A stretch of 64,000 nt of DNA from Flavobacteriaceae bacterium (GCA_036478895.1 JAZGEV010000011.1:25836-89835); one strand, 5' to 3'. Shown: positions 36,517-46,085, counted from the stretch's first letter. Translations and numbers: made by a program. Notes: a model not told the origin generated them from the sequence alone.

Positions 36517-36550
36517 AAAAATCATTACTTATTTGAGTAATGATTTTTTT
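36517..36550 (+). terminator. Rho-independent terminator after the ElaA-like gene
   Basis: AAAAATCATTAC-ttatttga-GTAATGATTTTT followed by a T-run. Confidence 0.75.
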
Positions 36551-36554
36551 ATAC

Positions 36555-36587
36555 ACGTCATTCACGTTATTTATGACGTCACTCACG
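36555..36587 (+). promoter_or_regulatory. 12-bp direct repeat ACGTCA(T/C)TCACG x2 with 21-bp periodicity; candidate response-regulator or LytTR-type site
   Basis: ACGTCATTCACG (36555-36566) and ACGTCACTCACG (36576-36587). A GC-richer island in AT-rich DNA. Confidence 0.35.
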
Positions 36588-36921
36588 ACATTTTTTTGTT
36601 TTTAAGCTTCTTATCCCTTTACATTTGTGGTGTTGAAACATTTGAGGTGTTTTGGTAAAATTATTAATCATTTAAATAAAAATTGCTAATCATAATCAAT
36701 CGGTAAAAGAACATAATTATGATAATGGAAATAACAATCAATATAAAAATGGATCAAATTATTGGTTAAAAGTAGAAGAAAACCCAAATTTTAAAACAGT
36801 AGTTACTAAAATTAGTGATTATGCAAAATCAGCTAATACACCAAAGAATGTTGAGGAAATGAAAGATTTAGATATTTATAAATTCTCCTAAATATAATTA
36901 ATAAACTTAAAAATAAATAAT

Positions 36922-38169
36922 ATGAAAAATAATATATTTATAATTATTGTACTGATTTTAATATCAATTAATACTAACGCACAAACAAATCAACAATTCA
37001 CAAAACAATTTGTAACAGACAGTGGTGTTTATGGTTATGTAAAAATTACAACAAAACCTACAACGGTTGGTGGTGCTTATATTTGGATTCAACAAGATGC
37101 CGTTGTTATAGAAGGAATAAATGATTATACAGGTAATATGTTATCGGAAGTTGGTGTTAATTTCCCTTTTAATTGCTCCAATTGTGCTTTTTATGCAAGT
37201 GGTGAAGCAAGTATGCAAGTACCAGGTTGGACAAGAAGAGATTATGCTAAATTTAATAAAGGCGGTACTATTAATTCTGGTGGCTTTGGTAAAACCAATC
37301 AAACGGTACATTTTAGTGCGTCGGCTAAAAAAAGACATAATGATGCACGTTCAGAACATGGAAGTTCTTGGGAGAAAACTGGACGAGTTGAACAGATTTC
37401 TATACATAATGTAAAAGGCGCAGACATTAATAAAATTTCTGGATTTGTCAAAAAAATGAAATTGAAAAAATTAAATGAAGAAAGGGCAAAACTAGAAATG
37501 GAATTAAAACAAGATGACGGAAATTTTGCAACAGAAAACAATGATTCTACTACCAAAGAACAAACATCAAAAGAGAAAGATAATACAGAAAATAATGAAG
37601 GAGCAGTTGCAAAAAAAAATATAGAAAAAAGCGCTAAACAACCCATAAAAGAACCTGTTAAAGTACCTGATTTAAGCAGTGAGAAAATTAAAGCAGCAAC
37701 AACTGTTTTAGCAACAGCTGCTGTATTAGCTTCTTTTTCAAAAGAGGTTGGTTTGGGTGCCTATTATTCTATAGGAGGTATAGAAGCTATTGGTGCAGAA
37801 GGTTTATTTTTATTTTCAAAGAACATTGGAGCATCTGTAAATTATGGTGTTACTTTTCAAACAGAAAGTGAAAATAGAGATTCTATTGAAGGTTATGAAT
37901 ATGGTGGTGGAATTATTTTTAACATTAATAGGTCGTTTGGGTTTAGTGTTGATTTTCAATATTATCAAACTGTAAGTGGTGCTTATGATCAAAACCGAAA
38001 TCGTTTAGTTTTTGAAGAAAACGGTTCTCAAATTGGAGGATCGATATACTTAATGAATTTTTTAAAACTTAGTTATTTATCACCTGCATCAGGAGAATCC
38101 TATAGAAATTCAGAATTGATTGGAGAAGGTTCTGGAGCATTTAGAATAGGAGTTTATACTTATTTCTAA
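36922..38169 (+). CDS. Secreted protein, function unknown: N-terminal globular domain, K/E/N-rich linker, C-terminal beta-barrel-like domain
   Basis: Signal peptide ending NAQ. Alternating-hydrophobic C-terminal half ending RIGVYTYF (OMP-like terminal Phe). Confidence 0.5.
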   Translation: MKNNIFIIIVLILISINTNAQTNQQFTKQFVTDSGVYGYVKITTKPTTVGGAYIWIQQDAVVIEGINDYTGNMLSEVGVNFPFNCSNCAFYASGEASMQVPGWTRRDYAKFNKGGTINSGGFGKTNQTVHFSASAKKRHNDARSEHGSSWEKTGRVEQISIHNVKGADINKISGFVKKMKLKKLNEERAKLEMELKQDDGNFATENNDSTTKEQTSKEKDNTENNEGAVAKKNIEKSAKQPIKEPVKVPDLSSEKIKAATTVLATAAVLASFSKEVGLGAYYSIGGIEAIGAEGLFLFSKNIGASVNYGVTFQTESENRDSIEGYEYGGGIIFNINRSFGFSVDFQYYQTVSGAYDQNRNRLVFEENGSQIGGSIYLMNFLKLSYLSPASGESYRNSELIGEGSGAFRIGVYTYF

Positions 38170-38178
38170 AAATTAAAT

Positions 38179-38235
38179 CTTAAAAACCCCGCCAATTAAT
38201 AATACGTTGTTAGCAAACAATTAGGGGTTTTTAAG
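38179..38235 (+). terminator. Long-loop hairpin terminator
   Basis: CTTAAAAACCCC...GGGGTTTTTAAG, a 12-bp stem. Confidence 0.5.
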
Positions 38236-38349
38236 TTAATCAAACCAAAACAACCGTTAAAGGTATAAATCAGTCGGTTACATAAATAAGACTTGTATTG
38301 TAAATAGTAAAATTATATCATTGATTAAACATTTTAAAACTAAAACATA

Positions 38350-40818
38350 ATGAAAACAAAAGTACTTTTATTATTACTAGTTATTACAACTAGTATTAAC
38401 GCACAATTTACTGAGAACTTTGATAATTATAATTTAGGTACTGTTCTTTATCAAAACCCTGATTTATGGTCAACTTGGTCGGGATATGCAGAACCTTATT
38501 CGCAATTAATCATAGACAATGCACAATCGGTCTCTGGCTCACAAGCTGGTTATGTAGGACCAGATTATGTTACCGATGCCTTTCTATTATTAGGTAATAA
38601 AATATCTGGACAATGGAATCTTACGTTTCAAATGTATATACCAACAAATAAAAGTGGGTATTTTAATATTCAAGGTGCTCTAAGTGAGATTGGTGGCGTT
38701 TCAAATCCTAATGAATTTCTTGGAGGAAATGTGTCTTTTAATCAAGATAATACAAGTGCAGGAGTTGGAACATTAAATAGTATTAATTTTAATTTTCCTC
38801 ACGACACTTGGTTTTCTATAGAATTAATATTTGATGTAGATAATAAAACTTTCCAACTAAAAGTTAATAATAGTATTGTTAACATAACGCCTATTGATTT
38901 TGAAAATATACAAAATACAACAACTCAAATAGAGGTATTGGGCGCAATAGATTTCTTCTCTGCAAGTGCAACAAATGAGTATTGGATAGATGATATTGTA
39001 TATACAGGCAGTAGTATTCACACATTCATTCCAGATGATAACTTTGAACAAGCTCTAATAGATATTGGTTTAGACTCCAATTTAGATAATAAATTTATTA
39101 CAGCAGATTTACCAACATTAACATCTATAAATCTTGATAATAAAAATATTAATAATTTAGTTGGGATAAATGCGATGACTAATTTACAAACCTTAAGTTG
39201 TTCTGGTAATAATATTACAAGATTAGATCTTAGAGGGAATACACAATTAACAGCTATTAATTGTAGTAATAATAGTATCTCTGGCTTAATATTTACCGAT
39301 ACAGACTTATCTAATAAAAACAGTAATAACACAACAAATTTAACTGGTTTTCAAAGTTTAGATTGTAGTAATAATGCATTAACTGCACTGGATCTTACAA
39401 ATAATACAGCGTTAACGGTATTAAATTGCAGTAATAATAACCAACTTACATCATTAAACATTCAAAATGGCGTGAATACAAACCTAACTTCTTTTGATGC
39501 TACTAATAATCCATTAATCACTTGTATTTTTGTAGATGATGTAACTTACAGTACTGCAAATTGGCCAAATATAGATACAACTTCAACTTTTGTAGCAAAC
39601 CAAACCGAATGTGAAAATATTGTAACATATGTACCAGATGATTGGTTTGAATATAAATTAATACTAGCAGGTTACGATGATGTATATGATGATTATGTGA
39701 AAACTATTAATATTAGAGCTGTAGGAAATTTAGATCTTTCTAATAATAATATGACCAATTTAACAGGTATTGAAGACTTTGCAGGCTTAAAAAATTTAAA
39801 TATTTCTACTAATGTTAATTTAGGAAGTATTGATGTGACTAATAATAAATTTTTAAAAGTATTAAATGTTCAAGATACAGCATTAACCAGTTTAGATGTT
39901 TCACAAAATGAAGATTTAGTTTCACTTAATTGTTATTTTAATAACTTAACAAGTTTAGATATTTCTCAAAATACTGAGTTAGAAATATTAAATTGTAATT
40001 TAAATGATATACCAAATCTAGACGTGTCTCAAAATAATAATTTAACATCTTTAAGTTGTTATGGTAATAATTTTATTAATTTAAATATAAGTAATCTTAC
40101 TAATTTAACTTATTTAATGTATGGTAATACATCATTGGGCAATATGGATTTAAGTCAAAATGTAAATTTAGAAACACTGTATGCGCTTTATGTAAACACA
40201 TTGGATATTACCGCAAATTCATTATTATCATTTTTAGGAATATATTATTCAAATATACCAAATATTGATTTAAGCCAACACGGTAATTTAACAAGTTTAA
40301 ATTTATATGATAATGATAATTTAATAAATATAGATTTAAGTCAAAATACCATGTTAAATGATTTGTTTTGTACTTCAAGTGATAATTTAATAACACTTGA
40401 TCTTAGAAATGGGAATAATACAAATTTTGTAAATTTTAATGCAAATTTTAACCCTTTATTAACTTGTATTTATGTAGATGATGCTGGTTGGAGTCAAGCC
40501 AATTGGACAAATGTAGATACGGCAGTTTCTACTTTTATAGAAACAAATGCTGAATGTAGTACCTTGCTTTCTATAGATGATGAAGCGTTAAATGAGGTAA
40601 TTACTATTTATCCAAATCCTGCCAATGATATAATTACTATTAAAACTAAAGATAATGCAGTAATAGATAATATAACCATTTATAATAGCTTAGGTAAGAA
40701 GGTGAAAACTTCTAATCAAAATATTATGAATATAGGAAACCTGGAAAAAGGCATCTATTTAGTTGTAATAACAGATAACGATGGGAAAATTGCTAGAAAA
40801 AAAATACTTAAAAATTAA
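38350..40818 (+). CDS. Leucine-rich-repeat surface protein with T9SS C-terminal sorting domain
   Basis: Signal peptide and N-terminal lectin-like domain. Two blocks of about 22-aa LRRs (LTSLDxSxNxxLxxLxCxxNN), each capped by C(I)(F/Y)VDDxxxSxANWxNxDT. CTD reads ITIYPNPANDIITIK...GIYLVVITDNDGKIARKKILKN. Confidence 0.85.
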   Translation: MKTKVLLLLLVITTSINAQFTENFDNYNLGTVLYQNPDLWSTWSGYAEPYSQLIIDNAQSVSGSQAGYVGPDYVTDAFLLLGNKISGQWNLTFQMYIPTNKSGYFNIQGALSEIGGVSNPNEFLGGNVSFNQDNTSAGVGTLNSINFNFPHDTWFSIELIFDVDNKTFQLKVNNSIVNITPIDFENIQNTTTQIEVLGAIDFFSASATNEYWIDDIVYTGSSIHTFIPDDNFEQALIDIGLDSNLDNKFITADLPTLTSINLDNKNINNLVGINAMTNLQTLSCSGNNITRLDLRGNTQLTAINCSNNSISGLIFTDTDLSNKNSNNTTNLTGFQSLDCSNNALTALDLTNNTALTVLNCSNNNQLTSLNIQNGVNTNLTSFDATNNPLITCIFVDDVTYSTANWPNIDTTSTFVANQTECENIVTYVPDDWFEYKLILAGYDDVYDDYVKTINIRAVGNLDLSNNNMTNLTGIEDFAGLKNLNISTNVNLGSIDVTNNKFLKVLNVQDTALTSLDVSQNEDLVSLNCYFNNLTSLDISQNTELEILNCNLNDIPNLDVSQNNNLTSLSCYGNNFINLNISNLTNLTYLMYGNTSLGNMDLSQNVNLETLYALYVNTLDITANSLLSFLGIYYSNIPNIDLSQHGNLTSLNLYDNDNLINIDLSQNTMLNDLFCTSSDNLITLDLRNGNNTNFVNFNANFNPLLTCIYVDDAGWSQANWTNVDTAVSTFIETNAECSTLLSIDDEALNEVITIYPNPANDIITIKTKDNAVIDNITIYNSLGKKVKTSNQNIMNIGNLEKGIYLVVITDNDGKIARKKILKN

Positions 40819-40902
40819 AACGTCCATTCATTTTTCCTTTAGTTGTTTTATAATAAAAAAACCAAAGGATTTTTAACACTATAAAGACAGTTGTTAGTTT
40901 TT

Positions 40903-40950
40903 GAAAATGCCAAGTAGTTTATTATTAAAATTATATTGGCATTTTCTTTT
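40903..40950 (+). terminator. Hairpin plus T-run after the LRR gene
   Basis: GAAAATGCCAA-N22-TTGGCATTTTC (11-bp perfect arms) followed by TTTT. Confidence 0.55.
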
Positions 40951-40991
40951 AATAAAAAAATCTTATATTTAACCAATTCAACAATACTACT

Positions 40992-41972
40992 ATGAAAAAA
41001 ATACTTTTATTAGTCCTTTTCTTTGTATATATTTCAGGGTATTCGCAAAAACTTGTGTGGAAAAGTTCTAAAATAGAATCCGTGAAAAAATATGTTAAAG
41101 ACAATAAAATTACTTTAGACAAAAGAACTCAGCAGTATAAAAAAGGAAATACTATTCATTTATTTATAGATGAAAATGGTAATCATATATTAACAGGATA
41201 TCCAACTAAACTACATAACAAAAATCTATTTATTGTAAATTTAGTTGTATCTAAAAAAAGTTTAAAAAAATACATTTTTACATGTAATGTTGAAGGAGAT
41301 TATAGTGATGATTTAGTTATTGAAAATGGAAATGCACATCATAATGAAAATATTCGTCAAAACACAGAAGTAAAAGAAGTGTTTACTACCAAACCTTTTG
41401 CTAAATATGGAGAATTTACCGACTCCTTAAGTATAGATATTATAAAAAAAGATGGGGATAATGAAGACGTAATTTATAGTAAAACACTATCTATATCTAA
41501 AACATACCACATAAGTATTGCTACTGGATTTTTTGTTTCAAATTTATCGAACCCATTAAATATAAAAGCTGGTATTACTAATACAGGAGAAGCAACACTA
41601 ATAGCCGATGAAGTAGAAAGTAGAGGAATTGTTTCGTTAAACGCTGTTTATTATCCTTATGGTAGAAATTACATGTTTCCTAAAGAAAAATTCTATCAAA
41701 ATATAGGAATACTTGTAGGAACACAAGTAGATAAAAATCAATTTGATAATTTATTTAGTGGTTTACAATATGATTTTTCTAGAGGTGGAAGTATTGCTTT
41801 TGGTGTCCATTATGGAAAAGTAAATACACTGTCTGGTTTAGAAGATTTTACCTATGGCGAAACTCTTTTTAACGGTGACTTAAATACTATTGTTAAAAAA
41901 GAATGGAAAACAGGCTTTTTTGTAGGCTTAAACTTAGATGTTAGAATTTTTAAAAAATTATTTAATTTATAA
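40992..41972 (+). CDS. Secreted protein, function unknown, with beta-barrel-like C-terminal half
   Basis: Signal peptide (YISGYSQ). C-terminal strands such as GSIAFGVHYGKV and KTGFFVGLNLDVRIF. First gene of a tightly packed four-gene run. Confidence 0.45.
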   Translation: MKKILLLVLFFVYISGYSQKLVWKSSKIESVKKYVKDNKITLDKRTQQYKKGNTIHLFIDENGNHILTGYPTKLHNKNLFIVNLVVSKKSLKKYIFTCNVEGDYSDDLVIENGNAHHNENIRQNTEVKEVFTTKPFAKYGEFTDSLSIDIIKKDGDNEDVIYSKTLSISKTYHISIATGFFVSNLSNPLNIKAGITNTGEATLIADEVESRGIVSLNAVYYPYGRNYMFPKEKFYQNIGILVGTQVDKNQFDNLFSGLQYDFSRGGSIAFGVHYGKVNTLSGLEDFTYGETLFNGDLNTIVKKEWKTGFFVGLNLDVRIFKKLFNL

Positions 41973-41999
41973 TTACTATTAACTAAAAAACCAATTTAA

Positions 42000-42665
42000 A
42001 TGAAAACAACAACAACATTATTTTGTATTGTATTATTTAGTGTCTTTATTTTATCTTGTAAAGGAGATGAAAAAATAGATAGAAAAGCATTTTTAAAAGC
42101 CGCTAAGAAGCATTACGATAATCAGAAATATTTTAAACCAACTATAAATAAAATAAAAAATAAAAAAACAGGTGATATTGTCTTTTTAGCCGCAACAAAT
42201 AATTTTAATATTTGTGATAAAAGTAGTTTTACGACATCTTATCAACGAAGTCATTTACATTGTTCTGAAGAATTATTTGAATTAAAAACTTCTTTAAAAG
42301 TTACAAAAGATGAAAATAATAGTTATAAATTAGATACTTTTTCTACCAAGATAGTTGGTAATACTATATATTATCTTAAAAAAGATGGTATGAAAGTTAT
42401 AAAACCATTTGCTGGAGAAACTAAATTTTTAGAAATAAATGTATTATTAACCGAAAATGAAAATGAATCTGAAAAAATTGTCACTTTAAATATGAATGAA
42501 ATGGTAAATAAAAATTTAAACGTTGGAGATATTTTAGATTTTCATTTGATAAAACCAGATGGTAATAGACTTGGAGATACTAATTGCCCTAACTCATTAA
42601 TTAAACATAATAATATTGATGATTATGATTATAACTTTTGTGCATCGCAGATAACCTGTGAATAA
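42000..42665 (+). CDS. Cys-rich lipoprotein, function unknown
   Basis: Lipobox ILSCKG and six further Cys. Lies 27 bp after the previous gene and 2 bp before the next. Confidence 0.45.
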   Translation: MKTTTTLFCIVLFSVFILSCKGDEKIDRKAFLKAAKKHYDNQKYFKPTINKIKNKKTGDIVFLAATNNFNICDKSSFTTSYQRSHLHCSEELFELKTSLKVTKDENNSYKLDTFSTKIVGNTIYYLKKDGMKVIKPFAGETKFLEINVLLTENENESEKIVTLNMNEMVNKNLNVGDILDFHLIKPDGNRLGDTNCPNSLIKHNNIDDYDYNFCASQITCE

Positions 42666-42667
42666 TA

Positions 42668-44122
42668 ATGAAAAAACACTATCTTTTATATCTGTTCTTA
42701 TTACTAACTATTACTTTATACGCTCAAAGTAATTTAAAAGATAGTGTTGTTTTATCCATAAAAAAATTACAACTAAATAAAGCTTTAAAATTTTCTCAAA
42801 AAATAAACGATCCTATAAATTCAGTTTTTTTTAAGGAGCTAAATTTTTTAATTAAAGGCAATACTTTGGATACTATTCATAATACATTTTCAGAGATTAA
42901 AAATAACATTATAGTAAATTTATACAATGGTGATGCTGTACTACGTTATTCGCCACCAAACGACTCCTTAGCGTTTATATATTATAAAAGAGCTTTAAAA
43001 TTAGCAAGCCAAAAACAATTAACACTTTATAAAAATATAAGTTATAAAAAAATATGTAATGTCTTACAAAAAAATAATTTTAGTAATAATGATTTTAAAA
43101 TTTATCTTAATGATTTTGAACAATCTTCAATAGATTCGGTTGATAAATTTTGGGTGTCGTATTATAAATATGGACAACATTATTTTATAGAAAAACGAAA
43201 AGATAAAAGAGAATTTAATTTTTCATACGGAAAAAATATGCCTTTTTTACAAGCATCAATACTACAATTTAAAGGTGTTAATGCAGTCATTAAAAAGCAG
43301 TACAATAATGCTAGTTATTTTTACAATTCTGCAATTAAAAAACTTGAATCTTATCCATATTCTATCAGTAAGAAAGCTGTTCAAAAAATAAAATTTAATC
43401 TTTCAATAATAGAATTTAATAAAGGAAATTATCTAGCTGCCATTGAAAAATTTAAAAAAATAAAAATCTATAAAAACAAACAAATAGACCTTTTTAGACA
43501 CCATTGGATTAGTAAAAGCTACGACTCCTTACACCAAAAAGATAGTGCCGATTTTTATTATTTAAAATTCTATAAATTAAAAGATGACATTGATAAAAAA
43601 GGACATGCATTGGCAATAGTTCAAAATAATGCTCAAGAAAGAGATGCAGAAAATAATACGATTATAGCAAAGCTAAATAAAAATATGAATACCTTATTAC
43701 CTATATTAGCAATCATAGTTTTTTTACTAAGCTTGGTATTTTTACTCTATAAAAAATACGCTAAAAAAACAATTGTTTTAGAAGAAGAAAAATCTGAAAC
43801 GCTACAAAAATTAGACGAACTAAAAGATATAGTCATAAAAAATCACATTGTTTTAAAAGATAAAACTAAAGTTTATGTGGCAGATTTACTCTACATAAAA
43901 TCTGACGATCATTATTTAAAAATATTTTTAAGCGATGGAAATAGTCATTTTGTAAGAGGTAAATTATCTGAAGTTATTAAAGAATTACCACCAAATTTTA
44001 TTAGATCACATAGATCATATATAGTAAATAGAAATTTTGTAAAACAAATTAACAATACCTTTATTATCCTTACCGATAAAACCGAAATACCTCTTTCACG
44101 TTCTTATAAAGATAAATTTTGA
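42668..44122 (+). CDS. Membrane-anchored LytTR-domain transcriptional regulator with a TPR-like periplasmic sensor region
   Basis: Signal peptide, about 330-aa helical Y/K-rich repeat region, TM LLPILAIIVFLLSLVFLLY and C-terminal LytTR (LLYIKSDDHYLKIFL...FIRSHRSYIVNRNFV). Confidence 0.8.
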   Translation: MKKHYLLYLFLLLTITLYAQSNLKDSVVLSIKKLQLNKALKFSQKINDPINSVFFKELNFLIKGNTLDTIHNTFSEIKNNIIVNLYNGDAVLRYSPPNDSLAFIYYKRALKLASQKQLTLYKNISYKKICNVLQKNNFSNNDFKIYLNDFEQSSIDSVDKFWVSYYKYGQHYFIEKRKDKREFNFSYGKNMPFLQASILQFKGVNAVIKKQYNNASYFYNSAIKKLESYPYSISKKAVQKIKFNLSIIEFNKGNYLAAIEKFKKIKIYKNKQIDLFRHHWISKSYDSLHQKDSADFYYLKFYKLKDDIDKKGHALAIVQNNAQERDAENNTIIAKLNKNMNTLLPILAIIVFLLSLVFLLYKKYAKKTIVLEEEKSETLQKLDELKDIVIKNHIVLKDKTKVYVADLLYIKSDDHYLKIFLSDGNSHFVRGKLSEVIKELPPNFIRSHRSYIVNRNFVKQINNTFIILTDKTEIPLSRSYKDKF

Positions 44123-44135
44123 TTAGTTTTGTAAA

Positions 44136-44819
44136 GTGAACCGTATAAACCGTATAACTGCAATTCTTACCCAATTACAATCCAAACGTGTTGTAACTGC
44201 ACAAACCATTGCAGATCGGTTTGATATAAGTTTACGCACTGTTTATAGAGATATAAAATCACTAATGGAAGCTGGCGTTCCAATAGGATCGGAAAACGGA
44301 TTGGGCTATTTTATTGTAGATGGTTATCGTTTACCTCCAATTATGTTTACCGAAGACGAAGCAAACGCACTTATTACAGCCGATAAGTTAGTTCATCAAA
44401 AAAATGAAAAATCATTATCAAAAAATTATTCATCGGCATTGATAAAAATAAAAGCCGTTTTACGCAATCAACAAAAAGAAAAAATTGAATTATTAGACGA
44501 GCGTATTGGTGCAGATATTAAATATAGTATCAATCCAAAATCAGATTATTTATCAAAAATCCAAATAAGTATAACCGATTTTTTGCAACTCAATATAAGT
44601 TATCGTTCCATCTATAAAAACGAATTGACCAAACGGCACGTAAAACCACTCGCGCTATATTTTACCGAAAACGATTGGATTTTAGTCGGTTATTGTATGC
44701 TTAGAAATGCCATAAGAGAATTTAGATTGGATAAAATAGAAAGTCTTCAAATAACTGAAATTGCATTTGAACACTTTAAAGATTTTAATTTATCACAATA
44801 TCTAGAAGAAACACATTAG
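44136..44819 (+). CDS. YafY-type HTH + WYL domain transcriptional regulator
   Basis: GTG start 13 bp after the LytTR gene. HTH reads AQTIADRFDISLRTVYRDIKSLMEAGVPI. WYL region reads WILVGYCMLRNAIREFRLDKIESL. Confidence 0.8.
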   Translation: MNRINRITAILTQLQSKRVVTAQTIADRFDISLRTVYRDIKSLMEAGVPIGSENGLGYFIVDGYRLPPIMFTEDEANALITADKLVHQKNEKSLSKNYSSALIKIKAVLRNQQKEKIELLDERIGADIKYSINPKSDYLSKIQISITDFLQLNISYRSIYKNELTKRHVKPLALYFTENDWILVGYCMLRNAIREFRLDKIESLQITEIAFEHFKDFNLSQYLEETH

Positions 44820-44968
44820 TCAGGATTTCATTTAAAGTTAAACCTTAACTTTATAACTATCAACGTATTAGTATTAAGTATTATCTCTTTCAGCGAAGAA
44901 ATTTTTAATCTTGCAATAAATTTCTTATTTTAAACCCATGTTGACACACTGTTGTCATTCATCCTATT

Positions 44969-44976
44969 TACTTTTG
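44969..44976 (+). promoter_or_regulatory. Candidate Bacteroidota -7 box (TACTTTTG) for recA
   Basis: Matches TAnnTTTG. Spacing to the upstream TTG elements (14 or 25 nt) is not ideal. Confidence 0.3.
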
Positions 44977-44995
44977 TAGCATAGTTATTACAAAC

Positions 44996-45022
44996 ATGTT
45001 GATAAAAACAAAAAATCAACAT
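44996..45022 (+). promoter_or_regulatory. Inverted repeat ATGTTGAT-N11-ATCAACAT in the recA leader; candidate operator or 5'-UTR hairpin
   Basis: Perfect 8-bp arms, 53 bp upstream of the recA ATG. Confidence 0.4.
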
Positions 45023-45074
45023 AAAACAAGGATAAACATTCATTAATTTAGCAAACAAATAAATACAGAAAATT

Positions 45075-46085
45075 ATGGCAGCAAAAGAAGATAAAGAAAA
45101 AGCAGCAAAACTAAAAGCATTACAACTTACACTAGATAAACTAGATAAAAGTTACGGTAAAGGTGCTGTAATGAAATTAGGCGATATAGTACATCAAGAT
45201 GTTGATGCAATATCATCGGGATCATTAGGATTGGATTTAGCCTTAGGAATTGGTGGATATCCAAGAGGTAGAGTTATTGAAATTTATGGACCAGAATCAT
45301 CGGGTAAAACTACTTTAGCAATTCACGCTATTGCAGAAGCACAAAAAGCAGGAGGCATTGCAGCATTTATTGATGCAGAACATGCTTTTGATCGTTTTTA
45401 TGCGGAGAATTTAGGCGTAGATATTGATAATTTAGTTATTTCTCAACCAGACTATGGAGAACAAGCTTTAGAAATTGCCGATAATTTAATTAGCTCTGGT
45501 GCAATTGATATTATTGTAATTGATTCTGTTGCAGCCTTAACACCAAAAAGTGAAATTGATGGCGAAATGGGTGATTCAAAAATGGGATTACACGCACGTT
45601 TAATGTCACAAGCTTTACGTAAATTAACAGGAACTATTAGTAAAACAAATTGTACAGTTATATTTATAAATCAATTACGTGAAAAAATAGGTGTAATGTT
45701 TGGTAATCCAGAAGTAACCACAGGTGGAAATGCCCTTAAATTTTATGCTTCGGTTCGTTTAGATATTCGTAGAAGAACTCAAATAAAAGATGGTGATAAA
45801 GTTATAGGTAATTTAACCAAAGTAAAAGTAGTTAAAAATAAAGTTGCACCACCTTTTCAGATAGCAGAATTTGATATTATGTATGGTAAAGGAATTTCTA
45901 AAGTTGGTGAAATTTTAGACCTTGCTGTAGAACATAATATTGTAAAGAAAAGTGGTTCTTGGTTTAGTTACGGTGAAACAAAATTAGGACAAGGACGCGA
46001 TGCTGTAAAAGGCTTAATAGCCGATAATCCTGAATTAATGGATGAACTAGAAACAAAAATATTTGATAGCTTAAAAGAAAAGTAA
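45075..46085 (+). CDS. recA: Recombinase RecA
   Basis: [18 protein letters not shown] Walker [10 protein letters not shown] and the [35 protein letters not shown] core. Confidence 0.98.

Follow-up and report, generated by a model that had tools for sequence, protein, structure and literature searches.

In the agr system, whose regulator AgrA is of the LytTR type, a kinase and a processed peptide form a two-component circuit in which the sensor and its partner segment are hypervariable from strain to strain and autoregulation is positive. ToxR and CadC each carry a DNA-binding domain tethered by a single transmembrane helix, are controlled from the periplasm and often act together with a partner protein. 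Membrane-bound one-component LytTR regulators and the operons of the systems known as LRS have been described as well. In published LytTR sites the direct repeats are about 9 bp long and separated by about 12 bp (PMC6193735, PMC11347149), and in positively autoregulated LRS operons the repeats lie 4-11 bp upstream of the -35 element (PMC6193735). The present analysis concerns a 64,000-nucleotide stretch (the window) of a 2.44-Mb metagenome-assembled genome (MAG) of the Flavobacteriaceae with 28% GC, in which a first-pass annotation had described six co-oriented open reading frames (ORFs), here g1 to g6, at 36922-44819 as an envelope-sensing module. What is new at this locus is a family of regulators built from a signal peptide, a tetratricopeptide repeat (TPR) domain, one transmembrane helix and a LytTR domain, together with a predicted operator, a partner lipoprotein, a predicted regulon of a single operon and the joint exchange of sensor and cargo genes.

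The ORF calls reproduced the six co-oriented frames and the spacing of 27, 2 and 13 bp between g3, g4, g5 and g6. The functional unit is not 36922-44819 but 36555-44122, comprising operator, promoter and g1 to g5. This unit is a self-contained, strain-variable accessory cassette between an elaA-like gene and a WYL-recA gene pair, and it divides into variable secreted cargo (g1 and g2) and a core (g3, g4 and g5). The proposal of a module under its own membrane-anchored LytTR sensor is thereby upheld, with different limits.

The predicted operator and the regulator family

Two 12-nt direct repeats, ACGTCATTCACG and ACGTCACTCACG, stand upstream of g1 with a period of 21 bp (a 9-bp core plus 12 bp) and end 7 nt before a TTTG element; TTTG and TAnnTTTG are the -33 and -7 elements of Bacteroidota promoters. 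The pair occurs once in the 2.44-Mb genome, and a search of 81 homologous loci recovered it with exactly the same 21-bp spacing in other genera. When these loci were scanned with a position weight matrix (PWM), 16 forward-strand pairs exceeded the best score of any shuffled locus (24 bits), no reverse-strand pair passed the threshold, and the spacing was exactly 21 bp in all 16. All 16 share the strand of the regulator, and 15 of them precede the regulator gene of their locus by 1.5-6.2 kb. Six further pairs of 20.6-23.7 bits have the same context (L023, L027, L032, L042, L048 and L054); pairs in L057 (20.6 bits) and L041 (21.5 bits) lie at contig starts. Across 24 sites the layout is fixed and runs atGtcATTCACG, tTATTTnTn, aTGTCATTCACG, ACATTTT, TTTG, a gap of 21 nt (18 of 24 sites) and TAGTTTTG, with N9 between the half-sites and with ACATTTT-TTTG directly 3' of half-site 2 in nearly all cases.

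The locus that departs from the positional rule is L034, where the pair lies downstream of the regulator. The L034:13702 pair probably heads a neighbouring paralogous operon, L055, which includes a 2047-aa secreted protein. In Flagellimonas myxillae NZ_JAMFLY010000001 the regulators of L034 and L055 are about 10 kb apart.

Distribution among whole genomes follows that of the regulator g5. With a stringent pattern, the repeat pair (the box) was found in three of 41 related genomes only (G000, G001 and G011), and full-length g5 homologs at E <= 1e-20 were confined to the same three, each of which has box and regulator gene on one contig and one strand, with the box upstream; G014 and G023 give weaker, partial g5 matches and contain no box. 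Three near-complete genomes, among them the closed chromosome of Kordia algicida OT-1 with its box at 504,541 and its regulator at 507,502, each have a single regulator with a single genuine box some 3-4 kb upstream, and other matches with three mismatches are no commoner there than those of a control pattern. As there is one box per regulator in near-complete genomes, the regulator seems to be dedicated to its own operon. The putative site shares the geometry of published LytTR sites and co-occurs one-to-one with the regulator. A conserved operator would be expected from the identity across genera, which is 68-76% in LytTR domain and linker and 25% in the sensor. The suggestion that 36555-36587 is a LytTR target has accordingly gained ground, and on comparative evidence the predicted site is very likely the operator.

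The architecture of g5 was confirmed to be that of a periplasmic helical-repeat sensor with one membrane passage and a LytTR output. The LytTR domain scores 66 bits against a Pfam cut-off of 22.6 (E 3.8e-18), and its profile also matches PDB 3d6w. A profile of the g5 family matches TPR proteins over residues of about 175-365, including PH0952 (6mfv, E 1e-6) and Rap/RapF (4i9c, E 2.5e-4). Because a signal peptide is followed by one hydrophobic segment at about 338-366 and then by KKYAKK, the TPR domain is placed in the periplasm and the LytTR domain in the cytoplasm. No match to Response_reg or MHYT was found in g5, and no kinase gene in the cassette. Mean pairwise identity among 34 aligned family members is 25% in the sensor, 76% in the linker and 68% in the LytTR domain. 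The linker at 43763-43867 (residues 366-400), with the pattern LEEEKSETLQKLDELKxIVIKNHIVLKDKTKV, is conserved more strongly than any other part of the protein, the LytTR domain included.

g5 belongs to a large uncharacterised family of the Flavobacteriales. The architecture is not rare. Kordia, Maribacter, Pricia, Polaribacter, Psychroserpens and others are the sources of more than 100 full-length homologs (about 500 aa) among the matches listed, and species-representative genomes contain at least 416 candidate stretches encoding a g5 relative. No paper describing TPR/transmembrane/LytTR regulators in Flavobacteriia was found in the literature, and a transcriptome paper on Kordia algicida makes no mention of LytTR.

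Cassette exchange and the insertion site

At least five versions of the cassette occupy one chromosomal site in the genus. The window carries g1 to g5. L021 holds an OMP_b-brl protein, a VWA protein and homologs of g3 (55% identical), g4 (39%) and g5 (70%). L024 has four small secreted proteins, a g3 homolog at 70%, a transmembrane protein, a peptidase fused to a partner-like domain (see below) and a g5 homolog at 42%. The version on G011 contigs C31-C87-C182 has seven other genes including a g1-like protein, its contigs overlapping exactly at the box and the LytTR linker, and G001:C84 is a further same-site version with a g4 homolog. Identity between the versions is mosaic. A 104-nt anchor of operator and promoter is 80-86% identical to the window among same-site versions; in L024, G011 and G001:C84 the sensor is 25-30% identical to that of the window, the transmembrane segment 73-77% and the linker 80-94%, and the LytTR domain, where it is on the contig, 81-82%. 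Breaks between contigs fall exactly at box and linker, so that both anchors act as assembly repeats. Judged from these alignments, the cassette evolves by exchange of everything between its anchors, which are the operator and promoter on the left and the part coding for transmembrane segment, linker and LytTR domain on the right. The exchange of sensor and cargo at one site suggests diversifying selection on what is sensed. The MAG G011 (contigs C31, C87, C94 and C182) contains two versions of the locus, whose ElaA (63% and 73%) and WYL proteins (82% and 87%) differ in their identity to the window; these represent either a mixed bin or a duplication.

The site itself is polymorphic for the insertion. 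Five congeners lack the cassette at this site and have ElaA next to the WYL gene; a full-length g5 homolog was not found in any of the five genomes. The WYL gene is followed by recA in four of these (L105, L108, L109 and L110); L104 shows ElaA-WYL, with no recA match in its fetched stretch. The gap between ElaA and WYL measures 7, 21 and 23 nt in three cases and 180 nt in another, and in the fifth there is a 656-nt insert. This insert, in L110 (G003:C122), holds a MazF/PemK-like toxin gene and a small upstream ORF. The ElaA-WYL junction seems to be a hot spot for insertion. Among the cassette genes, none for an integrase or transposase was noted.

In other genera a gene for a 149-aa deaminase usually follows the regulator gene (18 loci). 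Since ElaA-WYL adjacency exists without the cassette and a deaminase gene lies downstream elsewhere, g6 is outside the module and its 13-bp distance from g5 is a by-product. The linked block of genes 3-6 in the first-pass annotation consequently shrinks to g3, g4 and g5, a tight core whose synteny is kept in congeners, and the LytTR-WYL pairing, once regarded as unusual, is an accident of the cassette's insertion site. The annotation should be corrected so that the WYL gene is read together with recA. The WYL-recA adjacency (window 44136-46085) is conserved in congeners, with recA 94-97% identical. As a part of the module, the WYL gene was rejected on the ground of the five congeners. The domains of g6 itself are clear (HTH_11, E 1.4e-16; WYL, E 9.3e-15).

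Genes and control elements of the cassette

The positions of all features are collected in Table 1. Pfam and NCBIfam bore out the domain labels given earlier to g2, g5 and g6.

Table 1. Cassette features and flanking elements, with positions counted from the first letter of the window
Feature	Position	Strand	Remarks
Terminator hairpin of the upstream elaA-like GNAT gene	36517..36548	+	Left cassette boundary; fold -12.8 kcal/mol, z -5.0, then U7
Operator half-site 1 (predicted), ACGTCATTCACG	36555..36566	+	Conserved pair, 21 bp apart
Operator half-site 2 (predicted), ACGTCACTCACG	36576..36587	+	Ends 7 nt before the -33 element
-33 element TTTG, Bacteroidota sigma-A type promoter	36595..36598	+	Read from sequence
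-7 element TACATTTG (TAnnTTTG)	36620..36627	+	Read from sequence; 21 nt past the -33 element
Leader before g1, about 290 nt	36628..36921	+	Between predicted promoter and g1
g1, secreted 415-aa cargo protein	36922..38169	+	N-terminal domain, K/E/N-rich linker, C-terminus resembling outer-membrane proteins and ending YTYF
Terminator-like hairpin after g1	38179..38235	+	-17.7 kcal/mol, z -4.6, then U5
g2, leucine-rich repeat (LRR) protein with type A C-terminal sorting domain of the type IX secretion system (T9SS)	38350..40818	+	Pfam, NCBIfam
Conserved hairpin, g3 5' region	40903..40946	+	-17.0 kcal/mol, z -4.6; insulator or terminator before core genes
TATATTTA, -7-like element, candidate basal promoter of g3-g5	40964..40971	+	20 nt before g3 start
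g3, secreted 326-aa protein, uncharacterised family	40992..41972	+	All-beta model
g4, 221-aa lipoprotein, probable divergent member of the partner-lipoprotein family	42000..42665	+	2 bp before g5
g5 residues 1-335, signal peptide and periplasmic TPR sensor, variable part	42668..43672	+	TPR profile matches
g5 residues 340-400, single transmembrane helix and conserved juxtamembrane linker	43685..43867	+	Hydropathy, KKYAKK
g5 residues 401-484, cytoplasmic LytTR DNA-binding domain	43868..44119	+	PF04397
g6, HTH-WYL regulator, right flank outside the module	44136..44819	+	Belongs with recA (45075-46085)

Between promoter and g1, the leader contains a 71-codon stop-to-stop frame that includes NYWLKVEENPNFKTVVTKISDYAK and has no ATG, GTG or TTG; no homolog of this frame was found in the homologous loci or the genome. 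No Rfam family reached or came near its gathering score in the leader, and the hairpin after g1 gives a sub-threshold Rfam match (E 0.049). A generic sigma-70 promoter scan and a simple terminator scan were uninformative for the present organism.

The cargo genes differ from version to version. No relative of g1 was found in Pfam, NCBIfam or PDB, and the only relative is 36-38% identical over the first 170-200 residues or so and lies inside a box-headed operon, G011:C87. For g2, LRR and Por_Secre_tail matches (E 1e-13) were obtained, with Por_Secre_tail and TIGR04183 at residues 753-822. As the genome encodes GldM, a core component of the T9SS (418 bits), and about 55 proteins with a T9SS C-terminal domain, g2 is plausible T9SS cargo. 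Neither gene is a fixed part of the module, as had been assumed, since unrelated secreted proteins replace both in every other cassette version. A role in surface recognition or adhesion fits g2 with its LRR domain only, and other versions carry peptidases, VWA or FG-GAP proteins instead.

The hairpin upstream of g3 had been read as the terminator of g2, in the same way as g1 was credited with its own. The latter stands; the former is assigned to the 5' region of g3 because it is kept in three loci whatever gene precedes it. Its arms GAAAATGCCAA/TTGGCATTTTC are found in the window, L021 and L024, with one compensatory pair change in L024, and TATATTTA falls within an invariant block of the three-locus alignment. 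Hairpin and about 45 nt after it, with TATATTTA, are kept before g3 at window 40903-40991, L021:2150-2248 and L024:4740-4831. This block suggests a separate basal promoter for g3-g5, and the region is a candidate insulator plus basal promoter of the core genes.

g3 matches no Pfam or NCBIfam family. At E < 1e-3 its own family counts 228 representatives, eight long members of which were tested and showed no Pfam domain, and orthologs of 55-70% identity are restricted to same-genus cassettes. The AlphaFold model is all-beta with a pLDDT of 64. Its best Foldseek matches are outer-membrane barrels at insignificant values (E >= 0.02, TM score 0.17), a PDB sequence search with the family gave no match, and the fold search with the model gave none that was significant. 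Neither g1 nor g3 matches an outer-membrane protein family of Pfam, and the barrel-like C-termini proposed for both are not established. A weak profile link (70%, E 4e-5) connects the g3 family with barrel-like first genes of other operons. As a universal partner of the regulator g3 was rejected, g3-family proteins being present in three same-genus cassettes only among the 81 loci. A distant member of the family at L126:6001-7356 has Peptidase_M10-like and trypsin-like genes as neighbours; its operon encodes secreted proteins but no LytTR regulator.

In 26 loci a gene for a small lipoprotein of the partner family stands before that of the regulator. A hidden Markov model (HMM) of this family gave 31 matches in 28 of the 81 loci, and in 26 of these matches the gene occupies the position directly before the regulator; the proteins are 150-235 aa long, often have a lipobox or signal peptide, and share the motifs FQxxH, IDFH and a C-terminal GGHxC. 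g4, for which the reading as a Cys-rich lipoprotein was confirmed by a lipobox (ILSC) and five more Cys, aligns with the family in hhalign at 91.9% (E 6.9e-7) with FQxxH, IDFH and GGxxC in register. A g4 homolog stands at the same position in G001:C84 (31% identity, BLAST E 9.5e-7). Membership by HMM had come from a single 16-bit match in a first clustering and was abandoned when a leave-out profile failed, so that the assignment now comes from hhalign and the G001 homolog only. No Pfam or NCBIfam family matches g4. Its AlphaFold model is all-beta and fairly confident (pLDDT 79), and a fold search with it found no PDB neighbour.

In all but one (L034) of the 22 loci examined, the genes between box and regulator share one direction, and two loci have a small overlapping reverse ORF call. 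Signal peptides or lipoboxes are present in most of the products. In other genera peptidases of unrelated classes are strikingly often beside the partner gene, namely S8 (L044, L053), astacin (L026, L027), trypsin-like (L046), C11 of the clostripain type (L032) and a weak C25 (L086); other variable genes encode g3-like or barrel-like proteins, VWA lipoproteins and an FG-GAP/cadherin-like protein. In both G011 versions an S8 domain (Peptidase_S8, subtilase) is fused to a C-terminal partner-like domain. This fusion lies directly upstream of the regulator at L135:7528-9258 (G011:C87) and L024:6277-7857.

A proposed circuit, its rivals and known systems

Comparison of the loci makes it probable that a membrane-tethered LytTR activator, bound to the two repeats, switches on the cargo genes and, by read-through, the core genes to which its own belongs. 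According to this model, g5 would act as a one-component transcription factor held in the inner membrane, with a cleaved signal peptide placing the TPR domain of about 315 residues (21-335) in the periplasm and the transmembrane helix and linker joining it to the cytoplasmic LytTR domain. Two LytTR domains, probably of a dimer, would occupy the repeats, and as these end 7 nt before the -33 TTTG, binding is proposed to activate the promoter with the -7 element TACATTTG, from which transcription is predicted to start at about 36630-36640. The promoter would drive the variable secreted cargo, here g1 and the LRR protein g2, while read-through past two hairpins would supply g3-g4-g5 and so close a positive feedback loop; the conserved element before g3 probably gives basal expression of the core. 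The periplasmic TPR domain would set the activity of g5 by binding a protein or peptide partner. The most promising candidate is g4, which is co-encoded and co-varies and would serve as a co-sensor or an inhibitor. The LytTR domain may also be freed from the membrane by proteolysis.

Several points weigh against this model or parts of it. Two strong hairpins separate the promoter from the regulator gene in the window, so that it is uncertain at this locus whether read-through brings about autoregulation. Sites found with the motif of the window itself served to seed the PWM, and the independent evidence for an operator is the bias in strand and position together with the genome-wide tests. Among the family loci that extend far enough upstream, about 26 in number, five lack a clear box. 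L043 lacks a partner gene between its first gene and the regulator. As for g4, the leave-out HMM of the partner family did not match it, a word-indexed search of about 5.8 billion proteins returned g4 itself only, and the evidence for its membership is of the profile-profile kind only.

The same operator could in principle serve repression, with g5 bound beside the -33 element and blocking RNA polymerase until a periplasmic signal releases it. The putative site is indeed very close to this element, and CoxC is a membrane-bound one-component LytTR repressor (PMC11347149); yet the CoxC operator overlaps the -35, and the repeats here end 7 nt upstream of the -33, which is the position in LytTR activators and autoregulated LRS operons (4-11 bp upstream; PMC6193735). 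A repressor is therefore unlikely. It is quite unlikely that the repeat block is a recombination or integration anchor, or the site of another factor, and that its link with the regulator reflects only the shared descent of a mobile cassette. Such an anchor would explain why assemblies break exactly at box and linker, why contents are swapped between the two and why the ElaA-WYL junction also holds the MazF/PemK-like pair in another congener, but not the fixed distance to the -33 and -7 elements across families of the Flavobacteriales and many chromosomal sites, nor the direct-repeat geometry, which is that of LytTR sites; the absence of noted integrase or transposase genes also speaks against it.

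That all six genes form one envelope-sensing unit in which the LytTR and WYL regulators cooperate is very unlikely. g5 and g6 are on the same strand with a short gap, and their adjacency recurs in L021, L024 and L049, but all of these are versions of one chromosomal site, and both the cassette-free congeners and the deaminase gene found downstream outside the genus point the other way. A chance neighbourhood of unrelated accessory genes, finally, is hardly credible. g1, g2 and g4 are almost without homologs and gene content differs in every relative, as this reading would predict, yet operator, promoter, partner position and regulator are conserved jointly across genera under strict rules of strand and position, and the 81-locus scan as well as the co-occurrence in 41 genomes and in near-complete genomes contradict it.

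The activator model can be extended tentatively, and we rate the extension as rather unlikely. The cassette would be an extracytoplasmic, kinase-free circuit with strain-specific specificity groups, like agr pherotypes, and the partner lipoprotein, or a fragment released by the adjoining peptidases, would be the TPR ligand or inhibitor. If this were true, each swapped pair of sensor and partner would be a private channel, serving cell-cell or kin recognition or the sensing of peptidase activity, that induces its own secreted effectors, and the g5-type regulator of Kordia algicida could underlie density-dependent protease release. Flavobacteriia play a major part in the breakdown of algal and particulate organic matter, and little is known about the control of their secreted and T9SS-exported proteins. 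The present analysis defines a widespread, kinase-free family of sensor-regulators in the Flavobacteriales with a predicted operator, a predicted regulon of one operon and a conserved partner gene, whose variable secreted effectors include adhesin-like LRR proteins, peptidases and VWA proteins.

Several known systems share features with this cassette. HTH-WYL regulators include PafBC and DriD; g6 has the same HTH_11 and WYL domains and lies directly upstream of recA. ToxR and CadC resemble g5 in their tether and differ in their opposite topology, with an N-terminal DNA-binding domain, and in using a winged helix rather than LytTR. The TPR regions matched by the g5 profile are those of Rap/RRNPP receptors and PH0952 (4i9c, 6mfv), and TPR domains bind peptides or protein partners; however, RRNPP receptors are cytoplasmic with HTH or phosphatase outputs, and the g5 match is one of generic TPR similarity. 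With agr, the cassette has in common a conserved LytTR output and operator combined with a strain-variable sensor-partner segment at one locus, whereas no kinase, REC domain or peptide precursor of the AgrA/ComE type is seen in it.

Other parallels are found among LytTR regulators. CoxC, an MHYT-LytTR protein, likewise joins a membrane sensor and a C-terminal LytTR domain in one polypeptide and binds direct repeats while membrane-bound, but it is a repressor with a seven-transmembrane MHYT gas sensor and three repeats overlapping the -35, in contrast to one transmembrane helix, a TPR domain and two repeats for g5 (PMC11347149). The LRS of Streptococcus mutans (HdrRM and BrsRM; Zou et al. 2018, PMC6193735) also have a LytTR regulator lacking a receiver domain, an adjacent gene for an envelope protein, direct repeats with a spacer of about 12 bp at 4-11 bp upstream of the operon's -35, and a regulon centred on their own operon. 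In these systems a soluble regulator is paired with a polytopic membrane inhibitor encoded downstream of it (DUF2154, DUF3021 or an SMU_295 homolog), whereas in the cassette the regulator g5 has its own membrane anchor and a periplasmic TPR domain, and the lipoprotein g4, which matches no Pfam family, is encoded upstream. LRS-like operons of the Bacteroides fragilis group come from the same phylum, have the membrane partner upstream and place transmembrane segments before the LytTR DNA-binding domain; they differ in having several such segments and an NfeD-like plus DUF2154 partner, with neither the signal peptide and TPR ectodomain nor the lipoprotein partner that characterise the cassette described here (PMC6193735).

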